From assembly GCA_963582235.1 (NCBI GenBank), contig CAUZRT010000002.1, forward strand, positions 1 to 36,734: a stretch of DNA of 36,734 nt, read 5' to 3'. Below, in pieces: positions 3,187-35,182 of the stretch. This DNA comes from Lentisphaeria bacterium (lineage in GTDB: Bacteria; Verrucomicrobiota; Lentisphaeria; JABSQK01; CAJWLW01). The notes beneath the pieces are model-generated. The model did not search any database. It was not told where the DNA came from and saw only the letters and a program-made list of their open reading frames with translations. The translations under genes and the position numbers were made by a program. Position 1 is the stretch's first letter. Each line of letters starts with the position of its first letter.

Positions 3187-3231
3187 ACGGCATTTTGATT
3201 TTCGATTCGTCATTCATTCCCCACCCCCCGA

Positions 3232-3308
3232 GAAACAGTACTCGTAATCGATTACGAGTACTGTTTCCGCCTGCCAAACTGACTGCGCCGGAACCTCGCT
3301 GAATAGTT
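3232..3308 (-). repeat. Composite intergenic element, copy 1 (conserved module 3272-3308 plus perfect 36-nt palindrome 3232-3267)
   Basis: 3272-3308 (TGCCAAACTGACTGCGCCGGAACCTCGCTGAATAGTT) matches 34994-35031 at 32 of 38 aligned columns. 3232-3267 (GAAACAGTACTCGTAATC|GATTACGAGTACTGTTTC) is a perfect inverted repeat and a possible terminator for rplS, but it has no U-tract. Confidence 0.8.
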
Positions 3309-3339
3309 TTTTCATCCTCCCATCCCTCCCATTTTTCCC

Positions 3340-4008: not shown

Positions 4009-4237
4009 GGGTGACTATTCAGGTGGACGGTGGGGGGTGGACGGTGAACGCTCGCGCCGGAGTTTCCAGCGTCTACCGCAATATTCGCGAAGGCGATCAC
4101 CCTGAGCATGCAATATTCGTTGGACGGGGTTTCTCCCTCCAACGTCCACCTCCCACCTAAAAGTCAAGTTGCGCGATCGTATTTTGGCCTCCCGCCGGAT
4201 TCGGTAAGACCTAATTCACCCATCCACCCTTCACCCC
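4008..4237 (+). other. Structured rnhB-M48 spacer: ACTATTCAGGT core, G-word arm, two C-word arms, 10-nt direct repeat
   Basis: 4029-4048 is complementary to 4138-4157 (17 Watson-Crick pairs plus 1 G.U out of 20). 4008-4014 is perfectly complementary to 4231-4237. GCAATATTCG occurs at 4078-4087 and 4110-4119. Confidence 0.6.
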
Positions 4238-4247
4238 TGCGTGCTCC

Positions 4248-5489: not shown

Positions 5490-5927
5490 TCCGGGGGCAG
5501 TGTTGAGTAACGCGCGAATTCAGGCAACCGCATAGCGGTGAAGGATTCGCTGGCTTCGGGATGTTGCCTTGGGTTCGGCGTTTGTGGATTCTGCCATCCG
5601 TCAACTGACGGATCACGTTCAGCGTGTCGCGCGTGCGGAATGGTTACGTGATCTTCAGATTCTCTGAATCCAGACGTCCGATTCTGGATACCAACGAATG
5701 AAAGTTAGGCCCCTGGGATGCGATCCAATTTCATACGACATAGCCCGGAGGGCGGTCCATCGTCTGCCAGATCGCCCGGCAGCGGGCAATCCGGAATGAA
5801 TCCGATCACTAACCACTGACCGCTGATAACCCATTCCGGCGCGAATAGTCCCGACCTTTCTGCTGGACAGCAGAGTCGAGACGCGCCGATTCGCATTCGT
5901 CATTCCCCAATCTCCGCATCTTCATCC

Positions 5928-7739: not shown

Positions 7740-8319
7740 TTACAACTGCGGCTTGGTGCTCGCGCAATACCGACGGAAAAAAAGTTCCCGATCTCACGAA
7801 TAATTTTCTTGTGCAAAAAAAAAACTACCGCTATTTTAGGGGCATAGGCCGAAATCCTACGAAAAATGATGATCTGCCCTTATTCGTTTCAGAATAAATC
7901 GATCATCCCGGGATTCAAAACTCATTGCATCGAGGTCGGTTACAGCTTTGCGGCCGGCTTCGAAGTATAACACAATAACTGGTTGTGCACAAGAGAATGA
8001 TCAAGACTTTCCTATCACGACTGTTCGACGAGATGAGCCCTTGTCATGGGTGAGTGAGGCTACCGGCTGAAGAAGTCGGTTGACAGTACGCCAAGCGCGC
8101 TATCGGCCAGCAGCAAGCGATTTGGATGGACGTTATCCGCTCACGGCGAACGGATGTCGCGGTTTACCGCATGCAGCTGACCTGTCACATAGGCTTCCAA
8201 GACCTCGAAGGTGCCTATCTGGCGCATCACCTCTACGCGAACGGGGGCTCCCGGACTACTACTCACTGTTCATCAACTGTGACAACATCGTGAACAGTGG
8301 CATCAGCTCGAATCTCTAC

Positions 8320-8709
8320 ATGTCGGAGCGAGACCCCCATTCGGCAGTTCACAACGCGAAGATCGCCATGGACCGACACATCATTCCATTTCTGGATAGG
8401 TACTCAGACACGCCTACGCTGGTCGCCAACCTTGAAGACCCCGGCTACCAGAAACGCGTATCATCTGATCCGTTGTCCAACGCAGTGATTCTCTTGAGCT
8501 ATCACGCGTTTCGCGGCGAGGCCGACGCCTTCAATGCGGCCACAGATAGGCTGATGGTCTATTGCGGAAGCCGCTCTGGCGAGGGATCCGCATTGGGGTT
8601 CGTCCATCCTGTGGCGTTCGGAGTTTCGCAACATTCTGGCGGGCTATCTCCGGCGCGGAGACCTGGCTGTAAACGCGGTGACACGTTGTCTGGAGGGTGC
8701 GAAATATAA
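8320..8709 (+). CDS. Hypothetical protein (weak call; could be a gene remnant)
   Basis: This is the only sizeable ORF in an AT-richer, gene-poor stretch. I recognise no motif. The track ORF begins at 8080, but its first 80 codons are Arg/Pro-rich and not protein-like. Confidence 0.25.
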   Translation: MSERDPHSAVHNAKIAMDRHIIPFLDRYSDTPTLVANLEDPGYQKRVSSDPLSNAVILLSYHAFRGEADAFNAATDRLMVYCGSRSGEGSALGFVHPVAFGVSQHSGGLSPARRPGCKRGDTLSGGCEI

Positions 8710-8813
8710 AGGTGAATACGACCTGGATTCGATCGGCCGTGACGCTCATTATTTCCCTGCAACCATGATCCGTTATTGACGGCCGTGCGGCATGACCACA
8801 GGATTCTTGGCAC

Positions 8814-9826
8814 TCACTCATTCGGACGCTCGGTTGGCCGCAGCATTGAGGGTGGGACGCTGCGCACCAGGCGGAATCCGCACATATTACCATGTGAATC
8901 GGGCGGTAGCCGGTAGCGGCTGGCAAAGCGGCAGTTGGAATAATCGGCAAGCCAGTTGCCGCCGCGGATGCTCTTGCGGACAGCATCCACGTCAGCGGGC
9001 TCGAGGTAGTCGTAAAAGTCATTCGCACACCACTCCCAGACGTTGCCGCGCATGTCGCAGATTCCCCACGCGTTGGGTCGCCGGCGTCCGACGAGACGCG
9101 TGCCTTTCGGCTGCGTTTGTGCGTAGTCCGCATAGCGCCTCAGATCCTGCCACGAGCCGCTGCAGCAATACGGTGTCCGGGTCCCGGCACGACACGCGTA
9201 TTCCCGCTCTTCTTCGCTCGGCAGACGATAATTTCCGCGTGGCAATTTCTCGAGCCCGCACAAGCGGGCGGCGAACTCTGCGCACATGGCCCACGTAACT
9301 TCTTCGACCGGCCGATTCAGCGTCGTGTCCTGGAACCAGGACGGGTTCTGTTCATGGCCCATGACCGCCATCCATTGTTCCTGCGTGACCTCACACGCGG
9401 CGACGTACAACGGGGCGGTGACGGCGGACGACATGTTCCGGTTTGTCCGCCCCACGTCCGGGTTCGGATGCGGGGCTGCCCATCACATAGGTGCAGTGAG
9501 GGATCAGACGGAATCGCATACCGATGGAGTTTTCGATTTCGACCGGCAGCCGGTAGTTCAGGACGGCACGCCGTTGGGCCGCCTGAGATGCGGCACTCCC
9601 CGCCGCGAGGCCCTCGAGGGGTGCCCAGCAGGGGCCCCGCAACGACCCGTGTGCCAGGCAGAATAAGGGCCCGCGTCGCCGAGGTCCGGGCCGGGGCGCG
9701 GAGCGGGGATGCCACGTCTGTCACCTGACCCGGCATACCGGCCCGGGTCACCGCCAGGTGCGTTGCCAGGCGGCAGGCAACAACCACGAACAGGACGGCA
9801 AACCAGAATGCCAGTCGCAGCTTCAG
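8814..9826 (-). pseudogene. FGE-sulfatase (SUMF1-like) domain protein, frameshifted
   Basis: The domain is split over three frames. The signal-like LKLRLAFWFAVLFVVVAC has no ATG. ENSIGMRFRLIPHCTYVMGSPASEPGRGADKPEH lies in ORF 9391-9642. VTAPLYVAACEVTQEQW...NAWGICDMRGNVWEW...RGGNW...GFRLV lies in ORF 8814-9455. One shift is near 9425. Confidence 0.65.
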
Positions 9827-9964
9827 GCGTTGCCGGCGTTAGTGACGCCGTGGTGCACCGGCTCGACGGACCGAGCCGGTGGCCTGACGCCGGCGAAACC
9901 TGTCTTCGGTGGCGGCCAGTTCATCCGGGAAGAGATTGTTGAAGTCGCCACGAACCATCGGAAG

Positions 9965-10035
9965 GATTGGGAGATTGGGAGATTGGGAGATTGGGAGATT
10001 GGGAGATTGGGAGATTGGGAGATTGGGAGATTGGA
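9965..10035. repeat. Tandem 8-nt repeat (GATTGGGA) x 8 plus a partial copy
   Basis: Read directly from the sequence: perfect copies from 9965 to 10028, then GATTGGA. It starts 20 nt 3' of the LptF/G-family stop codon and lies upstream of the decayed FGE-like gene. Confidence 0.95.
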
Positions 10036-10055
10036 CCGATAGAAGAATGGTGTGT

Positions 10056-12050: not shown

Positions 12051-12102
12051 TTTACCTTCCCAATCCGAGGAAACGCCCTTTACCTTTTCAACCCGAGGAA
12101 AC
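12051..12102 (+). repeat. Two imperfect 24-nt direct repeats (12051-12074, 12079-12102), each containing CCGAGGAAAC
   Basis: TTTACCTTCCCAATCCGAGGAAAC versus TTTACCTTTTCAACCCGAGGAAAC, 21 of 24 identical. The second copy supplies the SD-like GAGGAAA just upstream of the ATG at 12107. Confidence 0.8.
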
Positions 12103-12106
12103 ATCC

Positions 12107-13215: not shown

Positions 13216-13274
13216 GTCGTAGATGCGACGTCCCGACAACGGCGCAGACGCTCACCCTCCAGCGGTCGCCCCGG

Positions 13275-13319
13275 GCGGCCATTTTCATTTCACTTATTTC
13301 ACAACCGCACAATGGCCGC
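13275..13319. terminator. Hairpin between convergent genes (9-bp stem GCGGCCATT/AATGGCCGC, 27-nt loop)
   Basis: The inverted repeat was read directly. It lies between the convergent 12484-13215 (+) and 13364-14101 (-) genes. The large loop and missing U-tract make a terminator function uncertain. Confidence 0.3.
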
Positions 13320-13363
13320 TGCCACGCCCGGGAAGCTCGCCATTTCGATTCCAGTAGACCCGC

Positions 13364-14101
13364 TCACCGTTCCCGCAGATTGTCCCGATACTGATTGTGC
13401 GCCAGGCGGCTGAGAAGCCCCGGCACCAAGGACAAAAGGTATAACAGCCGGCTCGCACTGTCGGGCAGAACGCGACGTTTGCGATTCATGATCCCTCGAA
13501 TCACGACCGGTGCAATGCGTTCCGGATCCGCACCCCGGCCTCTATCGAAGCCGGCATAGAAGCGCAGGTGGTCCGTTCGCATGGGCCCCGGATAGACGCG
13601 CGTGACGGTTATTCCGCAGCCATGCAGATAGGCATCGAGGGCTGCAGCGAACCCATCCAGTGCGGACTTGCTGGCGGCGTAGGCGAGGGCAATCGGAAAG
13701 GGAAAAAAGACGGTCGCCGAACAGATAAAGGCGATGCGCCCATCCGCCGTCAGCCGGTTGGTCCGCAACAGTTGCTTGACCAACTGAATGTGGCCGAGCG
13801 TATTGACAGCGAATACCCGCTCTTCATCGGCAAACGGAATCTCGCGGAAATCGCCGCTGATACTGATTCCCGCGTTGCAGATCACAATATCATAGACATC
13901 CGTTGCCGACGCGAGATCGGAAGCGGCAGGATCGGCGACATCCAATGGGACGTACGCGATGTTATCACGCTCACCGGCGAGACACCGTCCGTTTTCATGG
14001 TCGATATCGGCGACCGTGACCCGGCAGTCGTCGGCGGCGAGATGCCGCGTCAGCGCCCGTCCGAGGCCGGCTGCCCCGCCGGTGATAAGCACATTTCGCA
14101 T
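13364..14101 (-). CDS. SDR-family oxidoreductase
   Basis: TGGAAGLG Rossmann motif, NAG, and catalytic YAASK. Confidence 0.85.
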   Translation of the reverse strand: MRNVLITGGAAGLGRALTRHLAADDCRVTVADIDHENGRCLAGERDNIAYVPLDVADPAASDLASATDVYDIVICNAGISISGDFREIPFADEERVFAVNTLGHIQLVKQLLRTNRLTADGRIAFICSATVFFPFPIALAYAASKSALDGFAAALDAYLHGCGITVTRVYPGPMRTDHLRFYAGFDRGRGADPERIAPVVIRGIMNRKRRVLPDSASRLLYLLSLVPGLLSRLAHNQYRDNLRER

Positions 14102-14302
14102 TCGTGTGGCTCCTGAGGAACTTGGATCTAGATTTCAGGTGTTCGGGGACCGGTAGATTGCAGTCATAGCCCTGGAGGGCAAGCGTCCGGCTACCAACAA
14201 AAGTTTCGATTTGTAATAATCCGTCTTCCGTCGGCTGACGGAGACGGATCGTAGCGGGAGGCGGCGGGCGCTCCTGAGGAACGATCCAGCGAAGGCGGAA
14301 AG

Positions 14303-14423
14303 CGTACAGGGTTCAGTGACTTTCTGGCGCAGCCAGTTTTGGCAGTCAGAAACATATCGTCCTCGTCCTCGTCCTCGTCCTCGACTGCAAATCGATAACG
14401 AGGACGAAGGACGAGAAAGTTTC
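14303..14423 (+). repeat. Composite intergenic element, copy 2 (module 14303-14353; (TCGTCC)4 / GGACGA hairpin 14357-14415; GAAAC 14349-14353 / GTTTC 14419-14423)
   Basis: TTCAGTGACTTTCTGGCGCAGCCAGTTTTGGCA (14312-14344) matches the reverse complement of the 35-kb copy at 27 of 33 positions. The stem 14368-14383 pairs with 14399-14415 with one bulge. Confidence 0.8.
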
Positions 14424-21493: not shown

Positions 21494-21562
21494 GGAGATG
21501 GCGTGTTGGCATGATGGAATTGTGGAAGGTCGGAAGGTAACTATTCAGGTACTCGAACGCTT

Positions 21563-21609
21563 GGGTATTTGCGGCCCAACGGCGCGAGGTCGTCGGGCCG
21601 CAAATACCC
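21563..21609 (+). other. Perfect 15-bp hairpin (GGGTATTTGCGGCCC / GGGCCGCAAATACCC, 17-nt loop) in the secretin-ATPase spacer
   Basis: Read directly from the sequence. It begins 13 nt after AACTATTCAGGT (21539-21550). No U-tract follows. Confidence 0.85.
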
Positions 21610-21698
21610 GACGCCGAATGCACCTTCTGACCACTGTATATCGTCACAACAGTGCGCCATCATTCCACCATTCCGACAATCGCCGCAGGCGTTCCAAA

Positions 21699-25654: not shown

Positions 25655-25682
25655 AATGGTGAATGGTGAATGGTGAATGGTT
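25655..25682. repeat. Heptamer tandem repeat (AATGGTG) x3 plus one imperfect copy
   Basis: Read directly from the sequence. It fills most of the 38-nt gap between the Zn-ribbon ORF stop (25681-25683) and the guaA start (25642). On the coding strand it reads CCATTCA repeats. Confidence 0.9.
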
Positions 25683-34786: not shown

Positions 34787-34911
34787 CTATCGAATCCTTT
34801 ATGGATGAGGAGTTGAGGAGCTAAAGTATCGGCGCAGGTGGAATAATGGAGTGATAGTAATACTGATTAACTGTTCAGCTACTCGAAGCATGGGCTCAAC
34901 GCCCTCTCCAT

Positions 34912-35034
34912 AAAACTTAATCGTCCTCGTCCTCGATTGCGCGGCGGGTTCGAGGACGAGGACGAAGGGCGAGGACGATTCGTTTCCCAGTATTGCCAAA
35001 ACTGGCAGCGCCAAAACCTTGCTGAATAGTTACG
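34912..35034 (-). repeat. Composite intergenic element, copy 3 (module 34986-35034; perfect 16-bp (TCGTCC)n hairpin 34921-34965)
   Basis: 34994-35031 (TGCCAAAACTGGCAGCGCCAAAACCTTGCTGAATAGTT) matches 3272-3308 at 32 of 38 columns. TCGTCCTCGTCCTCGA (34921-34936) is perfectly complementary to 34950-34965. On the minus strand the clamp reads GAAAC...GTTTT. Confidence 0.85.
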
Positions 35035-35182
35035 AATAGGGGAATATTGTAATATTGGATCGCATTGCTCCGTCAGCCGACAGGCGATGACTGTAGCCGC
35101 CAGAGGCGGATTCCCGAATCTTCCGTCGGCTAACGGATCGGGATGGCTGAAAAAATGTTACCGTTGGCGTACTGCAATGGCG

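Follow-up and report, generated by a model that had tools for sequence, protein, structure and literature searches.

The repeated element and its copies

The 36,734-nt stretch analysed here (hereafter the window), from contig CAUZRT010000002.1 of the Lentisphaeria bacterium assembly GCA_963582235.1, carries in three of its spacers a composite repeat in which a conserved module is followed by the pentanucleotide GAAAC and a long hairpin. An earlier note on this DNA had reported these three copies, and both their positions and their sequences proved to be as written there. They lie between a tetratricopeptide repeat (TPR) gene and exbB at 35 kb (copy 1), between two short-chain dehydrogenase genes at 14 kb (copy 2), and between rplS and rnhB at 3 kb (copy 3). 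In each case, the flanking genes are co-directional, in line with the earlier description of the element as strictly intergenic. Within tandem spacers, the elements are placed downstream of genes; the four divergent spacers contain none.

The module occupies 34994-35031 (minus strand) in copy 1, where alignment divides it into a head, AACTATTCAGCAAGG, and a core, TTTTGGCGCTGCCAGTTTTGGCA; 14312-14344 (plus strand) in copy 2, in which the head is shortened to GGTTCAG; and 3272-3308 (minus strand) in copy 3 (AACTATTCAGCGAGGTTCCGGCGCAGTCAGTTTGGCA), which ends 31 nt before the start codon of rnhB on the opposite strand. Previous alignments by hand agree with those of a repeat finder, which gave 85% identity over 33 nt for 3276-3308 compared with 34999-35031, and 82% (27/33) for 14312-14344 compared with 34994-35026. 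The strict pattern TTCAGNNANNTTNNGGCGCNGNCAGTTT matches exactly three times in the window, at 3276-3303(-), 14312-14339(+), and 34999-35026(-), and does not match once in all 100 shuffles of the window.

The count of three holds for the window itself, but more copies exist, as the wider search proposed at the outset has revealed. The window was extended to approx. 43 kb, reaching dnaA, by means of European Nucleotide Archive (ENA) contig k141_1979445 (51 kb, 99.99% identical). A fourth copy was recovered from Joint Genome Institute (JGI) metagenomes with the strict pattern (one true match plus one chance match) on contig L087, also found as L004, which stems from the ENA sample that also yielded the window's contig, so the two very probably represent one genome. 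This copy lies between a cyclophilin-like gene and dapL, in a spacer that measures 328 nt here compared with 26 nt in a relative whose DapL is 72% identical. Contig L092, from the same species, contributes a partial fifth copy. Thus, at least five module copies are present in approx. 50 kb of sequence.

Outside the species, the element has not been encountered. The strict module pattern has no match in 185,579 GTDB species genomes, a hidden Markov model of the module (nhmmer) finds only the known copies in 1.3 Mb of fetched loci and none in distant relatives, the core and arm patterns are missing from the same 1.3 Mb of relatives, and viral contigs contain no match, including to the termini and the core. 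In other genomes, the head motif occurs at chance frequency only. The closest homologues of neighbouring proteins outside the species are themselves remote (RNase HII ≤64%, M48 peptidase ≤54%, and MacB ≤54% identity); apart from a sister strain, searches with RNase HII, DapL, and MacB returned nothing closer than approx. 54-75% identity, and a search with the M48 peptidase recovered 80 GTDB loci that are too remote to be of use. The best protein matches belong to metagenome-assembled genomes of Verrucomicrobia, Lentisphaeria, and Kiritimatiellae, and the organism occurs in marine metagenomes, including one TARA Oceans sample. The host, a marine bacterium that has not been cultured, belongs to the Planctomycetes-Verrucomicrobia-Chlamydiae (PVC) group and, because its protein homologues are only distant, represents a poorly sampled lineage of that group.

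The hairpins

GAAAC stands 4-7 nt after every module and is followed by the long hairpin. In copy 1, GAAAC (34986-34982) and the hairpin, designated H1, together span 34912-34986, with a far-side GTTTT at 34916-34912. The perfect 16-bp stem of H1 (34921-34936 paired with 34950-34965) encloses the loop ACCCGCCGCGCAA, and extra unpaired TCGTCC-type units occupy 34966-34981. The corresponding part of copy 2 (14349-14423) consists of GAAAC, a (TCGTCC)4.5/(GGACGA) hairpin with the variant loop CTGCAAATCGATAA, and GTTTC. In copy 3, the hairpin is a perfect 36-nt palindrome, GAAACAGTACTCGTAATC/GATTACGAGTACTGTTTC, at 3232-3267, 45 nt past the rplS stop codon, with 18-nt arms that include GAAAC and GTTTC.

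Two features ascribed earlier to these hairpins require adjustment. Tandem-repeat and inverted-repeat searches recover (TCGTCC)n/(GGACGA)n stems in copies 1 and 2, and the perfect 18-bp palindrome of copy 3 is likewise present; however, this palindrome is not wholly unrelated to the other stems, as had been supposed, since it shares AATCGAT[A/T]ACGAG with the centre of the copy 2 hairpin. The proposed GAAAC/GTTT clamp stands on its module side, where GAAAC is present in 5/5 copies, but the far-side GTTTC/GTTTT is confined to the three copies in the window, and the 3-kb copy is the only one in which it forms a contiguous pairing with GAAAC.

The H1 loop is a conserved part in its own right, CTCGA-A(A/C)CCG(CC/TT)GCGCAA-TCGAG. 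It recurs in copy 1, in L087, and in the spacer between the MacB and ABC genes just past the end of the window (L085 18214-18258), where no module accompanies it. Relative to the module, its orientation is alike in copy 1 and L092 and flipped in L087. The module-side arm always contains more hexamer units than the far arm, and in L087 one arm is made of (TCGTTC)3 and the other of GGACGA units.

The module as a composite of head and core

The module is itself divisible into a head, (T)AACTRTTCAG (10-16 nt), and a core of approx. 30 nt, TTYYGGCGCWGYCAGTTT(T)GGCA. The 5' sequence AACTATTCAG is separable from the module and common to other elements; the core plus GAAAC never occurs without a hairpin. 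The head motif ACTRTTCAG occurs five times in the window, compared with 0.25 occurrences expected, and 5/5 sites are intergenic. Two of these are the heads of copies 1 and 3; in copies 2 and L087, only TTCAG is kept. The third (34869-34878, plus strand) faces the head of copy 1 across the hairpin, and copy 1 is therefore bounded by a terminal inverted repeat. By motif scan, the whole 35-kb element covers 34868-35032 (165 bp, minus strand), with the termini TAACTATTCAGC (35032-35021, minus strand) and TAACTGTTCAGC (34868-34879, plus strand); read as TAACTATTCAGC ... GCTGAACAGTTA, they match at 11/12 positions, with TA on both flanks. The mirror-side arm of this element, the B unit TAACTGTTCAGCTACTCGAAGCATGGGCTCAACGCCC (34868-34905, plus strand), is homologous to 21538-21565.

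The remaining two heads, at 4013 and 21539, are, like that at 34869, without a core, and a different long palindromic structure follows each of them. The first element (4013-4165, plus strand) combines the head GACTATTCAG with a palindromic structure of approx. 130 nt and a degenerate inverted terminus (CCTAAAAGTC); the second (21538-21609, plus strand) combines the head TAACTATTCAG with a B-like arm (GTACTCGAACGCTTGGG) and a 19-bp hairpin, and its inverted termini are also degenerate. The bases preceding the heads are TA at both ends of copy 1 and at 21538 and AA or TG at the others.

Additional parts are shared upstream of and within the module. A small hairpin, CCGTCTTCCGTCGGCTGACGGAGACGG, at 14219-14247 (plus strand) contains the 14-mer GTCGGCTGACGGAG and lies 69 nt upstream of module copy 2. 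On the upstream side of module copy 1, at a distance of 37 nt, the same 14-mer (35081-35068) recurs with unchanged orientation towards the module, and it has an inverted partner with two mismatches (35125-35138), the pair spanning 35068-35138 on the minus strand. Within the module, TTCAG is followed after 9 nt by a putative hairpin with a 5-bp stem and a 3-nt loop, CTGGC-GCW-GCCAG, at a spacing that is fixed in four copies; in copy 3, this small hairpin is broken rather than compensated. The view that all this forms one fixed composite element calls for adjustment: module, clamp, and hairpin are the commonest combination, but the element is a mosaic of parts that also occur in other combinations.

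Comparison with a sister strain

The elements could be compared with those of a sister strain that is approx. 97% identical (3.0% coding divergence), whose contigs were reached through variant proteins; exact-match queries with ExbB and the TPR protein gave no result. Copy 2 falls outside this comparison, as the sister contig ends approx. 150 nt short of the 14-kb module. At the 35-kb locus, the sister (L099) reads TAACTATTCAGCAAGGTCGCGGGGGCGTTGATCCC and is without the core, GAAAC, H1, and GTTTTATG (approx. 107 nt); by alignment and MAFFT, the missing segment corresponds to 34905-35015 (approx. 107-111 nt, with edges uncertain by a few bases). Both heads are kept there as a compact 58-nt palindrome. 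In the MacB/ABC spacer, the sister has H1, then GGACGAAGGACAATTTGTTTCCCCGTACTGCCAAAA, and then the end of the contig. Of this sequence, GTTTCCCCGTACTGCCAAAA is the reverse complement of the 3' end of the module, and GGACGAAGGACAATTTGTTTCCCCGTACTGCCAAAA as a whole is the reverse complement of the module 3' end plus GAAAC and differs from all other copies. In the window strain, a GGGGTTC-type hairpin occupies this position instead, and it appears that the sister carries a module at this locus and the window strain none.

At the 3-kb locus, the element is present in both strains, with 0/41 differences in the linker and module and 1/36 in the hairpin. The element as a whole (hairpin, linker, and module; 77 nt) has 1 difference, compared with 8 in the 76 nt of spacer that flank it; at the overall intergenic rate of approx. 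5%, approx. 4 differences would be expected in the element, so the deficit is by estimate not significant (P ~0.09). The strains also differ in the number of TCGTCC units and by a 14-nt slippage indel in the 4013 element.

Coding, transcription, and folding

No coding potential was detected in the element, in view of single-base indels between copies and in-frame stops in the frames inspected by eye. Two small-protein candidates were considered and rejected. A 33-amino-acid open reading frame (ORF; 3214-3315), which begins just upstream of copy 3 and has a good Shine-Dalgarno-like sequence, is shifted out of frame by a 1-nt indel relative to copy 1, and in copy 1 a TAA stands immediately upstream. 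On the opposite strand, a short frame that stops at the TGA within CTGAA is interrupted in copy 2 by a second TGA upstream.

A search of Rfam returned no match at gathering score across the whole window and only chance-level matches (E≤1-5) around copy 1 and on L087, which accords with the earlier remark that the repeat is not recognisable as a described family. No promoter-like site was found at the three window copies in a scan that covers the sigma-70 type consensus only, and none of these copies has a U-tract terminator, their tails reading GTTTTATGG, GTTTCAAATCC, and GTTTCTCGGGG. By folding energy, L087 does better on the element strand, copy 1 on the opposite strand, and copy 2 on the gene-sense strand, and copy 3 shows no preference. 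Since strand preference switches between copies, the palindromes look like DNA-level features rather than structures of one RNA strand. No compensatory pairs were found in the module hairpin among 4-5 sequences.

Several recognition sites were also rejected. A sigma-54 promoter (TGGCGC...TTGGCA) would have a GG-to-GC spacing of 16 on the element strand and 17 on the other, not 12. A Bacteroidetes-type -33/-7 promoter was likewise set aside. An extracytoplasmic function (ECF)-type motif GAAAC-N16-CGTC owes its CGTC match to the hexamer repeat and fails in copy 3. None of the patterns of attC, parS, dif, and integration host factor sites fits the element sequence.

A probable mosaic palindromic repeat family

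The pieces of the element recur far beyond chance, recombine in varied combinations, sit only between co-directional genes, and turn over rapidly from one close strain to another, and the hairpin arms resemble microsatellites in their behaviour. We consider it probable that they constitute a lineage-specific, non-coding, mosaic palindromic repeat family that resembles miniature inverted-repeat transposable elements (MITEs), bacterial interspersed mosaic elements (BIMEs), and repetitive extragenic palindromic (REP) sequences; most likely, this is a small repeat of an ordinary selfish or REP-like kind and not a new RNA gene. The first of the two readings offered earlier, that of a dispersed REP/MITE-like element, is thereby supported, given the extra copies, the lineage restriction, the sharp boundaries, the absence of coding potential, the inverted repeat of copy 1, and the presence or absence of elements between strains.

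The unit would consist of the head, the core with its 4-7-nt linker and GAAAC, a hairpin built from an inverted hexamer microsatellite, and, in some copies, a small upstream hairpin. It may spread or be exchanged as DNA, either because an enzyme acting in trans transposes it on recognising the shared termini or the hairpin, or through recombination between copies. The hairpin arms would lengthen and shorten by replication slippage, and recombination between the arms could invert the loop. Such hairpins would presumably be co-transcribed in operon mRNA and could act there in the manner of REPs, as barriers at 3' ends or as partial terminators, and not as independent genes.

Several observations weigh against this interpretation. 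No transposase or RAYT-type gene (RAYT, REP-associated tyrosine transposase) is present in 43 kb plus 3.4 kb, as judged from annotated domains and from Pfam searches with ten otherwise unannotated ORFs. A clear terminal inverted repeat is seen in copy 1 only, copies 2, 3, and L087 being "half" elements, and the TA flanks of copy 1 are not long enough to qualify as a target-site duplication. At the 35-kb locus, the strains differ by five bases at the right junction; the event is thus no clean insertion or excision and may have been a deletion or conversion. The low divergence of copy 3 hints at constraint or concerted evolution. Finally, the copy count is based on approx. 50 kb of sequence from the species, and the evidence for L092 consists of the last 29-36 nt of a short contig.

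Relation to known repeat systems

Among known systems, the BIMEs of Escherichia coli are similar in being extragenic, in combining a few short motifs with palindromic units in variable combinations and orientations, in lying after genes and inside or between operons, and in having hairpins without U tracts. However, there is no sequence similarity, and the present elements have 16-27-bp stems of hexamer microsatellites and a 45-nt non-palindromic conserved part and are without a GTAG tag.

REP families are likewise extragenic, mostly located downstream of coding regions between co-directional genes, and species specific, and have been reported in the PVC superphylum too (PMC3733652). REP/REPIN sequences associated with RAYTs and the elements described here are alike as palindromic extragenic repeats in tandem spacers downstream of genes, and the placement between co-directional genes, with none in the four divergent spacers, agrees with this class. 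Tagged REPs are short imperfect palindromes of 20-40 bp that carry an unpaired GTAG or CGTC tag; in the CGTC families, stems measure 8-9 bp and loops 4-5 nt (Di Nocera et al. 2013, PMC3733652). The hairpins here measure 36-80 nt, have stems of 16-18 bp or more, and are accompanied by the 45-nt non-palindromic module; GAAAC is the conserved flanking sequence, CGTC is restricted to the paired TCGTCC arms, and there is no GTAG at the hairpin foot. Because both the stem length and the unpaired tag differ, the elements do not belong to a GTAG- or CGTC-tagged REP family.

The Correia/NEMIS MITEs of Neisseria share with the present elements a length of approx. 100-170 bp, non-coding and intergenic character, the terminal inverted repeat and TA flanks seen in copy 1, and the occurrence of long and short strain variants at one locus; in both, co-transcribed hairpins could affect neighbouring genes. 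As expected of MITEs, the elements are small, non-coding, multi-copy, and polymorphic between strains at the 35-kb and, apparently, the MacB/ABC loci. Unlike the Neisseria elements, most copies here are without a second terminus or a clear target-site duplication (no terminal inverted repeats were found at copies 2, 3, and L087), and they possess an internal microsatellite hairpin with an invertible loop. The BOX elements of Streptococcus pneumoniae (boxA-boxB(n)-boxC) are also modular, with conserved end modules and variable numbers of internal units, but have no sequence relation to the present elements, in which 6-nt microsatellite units form two hairpin arms in place of 45-nt boxB modules. 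With palindrome-associated elements of the IS200/IS605 type, the fixed spacing between TTCAG and the small hairpin in four copies invites comparison, but the junction is unclean and the two hairpins are unlike each other.

Alternative explanations

The main rival explanation is that the element is a cis-regulatory cassette of the host, in which the hairpin ends or insulates the upstream transcript and the reverse-complemented module supplies the gene that follows with a promoter or a protein-binding site; in the promoter version, transcription is predicted to start just downstream of CTGAATAGTT. The order of stop codon, hairpin, GTTTC, reverse-complemented module, and next start codon along the gene direction in 4/5 copies (2, 3, L087, and L092) would suit such a role. 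The module ends only 31 nt before the start codon of rnhB and 24 nt before that of dapL, which means that any promoter serving these genes has to overlap the module or be located farther upstream than the hairpin. In copies 1 and 3, CTGRCW and AATAGT, separated by a 17-nt spacer, could be read as a candidate promoter with 8/12 matches to the sigma-70 consensus, and the module of copy 3 is unchanged between strains whereas the adjacent leader is changed at 4/31 positions. Nonetheless, no site passes the promoter scan, and the would-be -10 hexamer reads AACCCT in copy 2 and AACACG in L087. Copy 1 is oriented oppositely, into the 3' end of a convergently read gene, and the 4:1 split in orientation is not significant. 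The distance to the start codon varies from 24 to approx. 200 nt, 45 nt conserved at 80-88% identity far exceeds what a promoter needs, and exbB is kept in the sister strain even though the core and hairpin are missing upstream of it. On balance, we regard a cis-regulatory cassette as unlikely, although it deserves to be taken seriously.

A more speculative possibility is mobilisation guided by single-strand hairpins, as in palindrome-associated elements derived from IS200/IS605 or in REP/RAYT systems; here, TTCAG(YRA) would be the specific target or cleavage site and CTGGC-GCW-GCCAG, 8-9 nt downstream, the recognition hairpin of the left end. The transposition mode of IS608 and ISDra2 is expected to leave neither inverted termini nor target-site duplications, and the elements indeed have no consistent terminal inverted repeat or target-site duplication. 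At the 35-kb locus, the sister strain keeps the head TTCAGCAAGGT without the core, as an "empty" target would, stand-alone heads exist elsewhere, and the spacing of TTCAG, 9 nt, and hairpin is constant in four copies. However, no Y1/HUH transposase gene lies within the sequence covered, the left and right hairpins are dissimilar, the junction in the sister strain is unclean, the unpaired GTAG or CGTC tag of the tagged REP super-families is missing, and the small hairpin is imperfect in copy 3. We consider this mode of mobilisation improbable. A related idea, to which we likewise assign a low probability, is that the core (TTYYGGCGCWGYCAGTTT(T)GGCA-GAAAC) and the microsatellite-armed hairpin form a self-contained mobile cassette that would insert specifically beside the TTCAG-type heads of resident palindromes and be moved by an enzyme reading hairpin structure rather than sequence.

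The weakest alternative, which was the second reading in the earlier note, is that of a family of small RNAs or cis-antisense RNAs in element orientation, with the module as conserved body and the hairpin as terminator. The body is indeed conserved and the stems variable, and on the element strand alone, the three TCGTTC units of L087 form G-U wobble pairs with GGACGA, and folding there yields -51.8 compared with -35.9 kcal/mol on the opposite strand for the whole segment and -29.2 compared with -18.2 for the hairpin alone. Yet in the other copies folding is as good or better on the opposite strand, slippage of a single mutated unit better accounts for the three identical TCGTTC units, a U tract follows none of the hairpins, there is neither a promoter-like site nor an Rfam match nor a consistent strand preference, and CUGGC-GCW-GCCAG is broken in copy 3 with no compensatory change. 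In addition, the modules of copy 3 and L087 start 24-31 nt from an opposite-strand start codon, so that the promoter of a small RNA would sit inside that gene, and these two copies have no room for a promoter of their own. A small-RNA family is thus very unlikely.

Other features of the region

The dnaA gene lies at L085 19626-20909 (approx. 41.7-43 kb on the extended window), approx. 5 kb past the end of the window, which may therefore be near the replication origin. The module orientations (-, +, -) bear no relation to the position of dnaA or the origin. Also on the extended window, at approx. 40.2 kb (L085 18136-18203), a hairpin of GGGGTTC-like repeats with 27-bp arms stands beside a degenerate H1 in the MacB/ABC spacer, and TGAACCC-type repeats continue on its other side. 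Perfect intergenic microsatellites with 6-8-nt units are found as well: (GATTGGGA)8.8 at 9965-10034, after an lptF/G gene; (AATGGTG)3.9 at 25655-25681, just upstream of guaA; and (TAGTGCG)25.6 at L087 3244-3429, directly after dapL at the contig end. Together with (TCGTCC)n and the GGGGTTC repeats, these suggest unusually active slippage in the spacers of the host. Logan contigs end inside the copy 3 palindrome (L002 starts at 3238 and L096 ends at 3264) and inside the module (L092), so that the repeats coincide with breaks in metagenome assemblies and probably give rise to them.

In the convergent spacer between a 243-amino-acid ORF and a dehydrogenase gene, a palindromic segment of approx. 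87 nt (13258-13344), CCCGGGCGGCCATT...AATGGCCGC...CGCCCGGG, is missing from the sister strain. It is bordered by the direct repeats GCTCACC and GCTCGCC (GCTCRCC), which would fit either a target duplication or a slippage deletion. The adjacent dehydrogenase gene (13364-14101) has a 1-nt insertion in its 5' part (window 13990-14010) in the sister and in a JGI contig (L102/L103), where it is called as a shorter 211-amino-acid product with a different N-terminus; this gene may be decaying.

Within the 3' part of rpsP, an 84-nt tandem repeat (2.3 copies, 87% identical, 1382-1577) gives rise to an unusually long S16 protein of 207 amino acids with a repetitive C-terminal extension. The leaders of 25-40 nt that precede many start codons are poor in G and rich in C, T, and A (3309-3339, 4209-4247, 5890-5927, 12051-12106, and 21660-21698), as exemplified by TTTTTTCATCCTCCCATCCCTCCCATTTTTCCC before rnhB, and a Shine-Dalgarno-like GGAGG is missing from such leaders; upstream of gcvH, a 28-nt leader unit of this kind is duplicated in tandem. 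Long stretches without a called gene occur at 7740-8813 (approx. 1.07 kb) and 9372-10055 (approx. 0.68 kb). A 209-amino-acid ORF (8080-8709) and a 203-amino-acid ORF (9117-9728) have no Pfam match.

Significance

Mosaic palindromic repeats are already well known in other bacteria, and the present elements open no new biological question; their value lies in annotation, in awareness of repeats during assembly, and in providing a candidate system for hairpin turnover by way of microsatellite arms and loop inversion. Because the elements differ between strains that are approx. 97% identical, they could be used as strain markers. If the reading as a mobile cassette were true, the element would be a new hairpin-guided, target-specific miniature element, whose invertible loop and slippage-prone arms might tune read-through between genes. 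If, as we favour, the elements are a mosaic palindromic repeat family, they would represent a previously undescribed family in a poorly sampled marine PVC lineage, in which the repeats may set transcript boundaries within operons.

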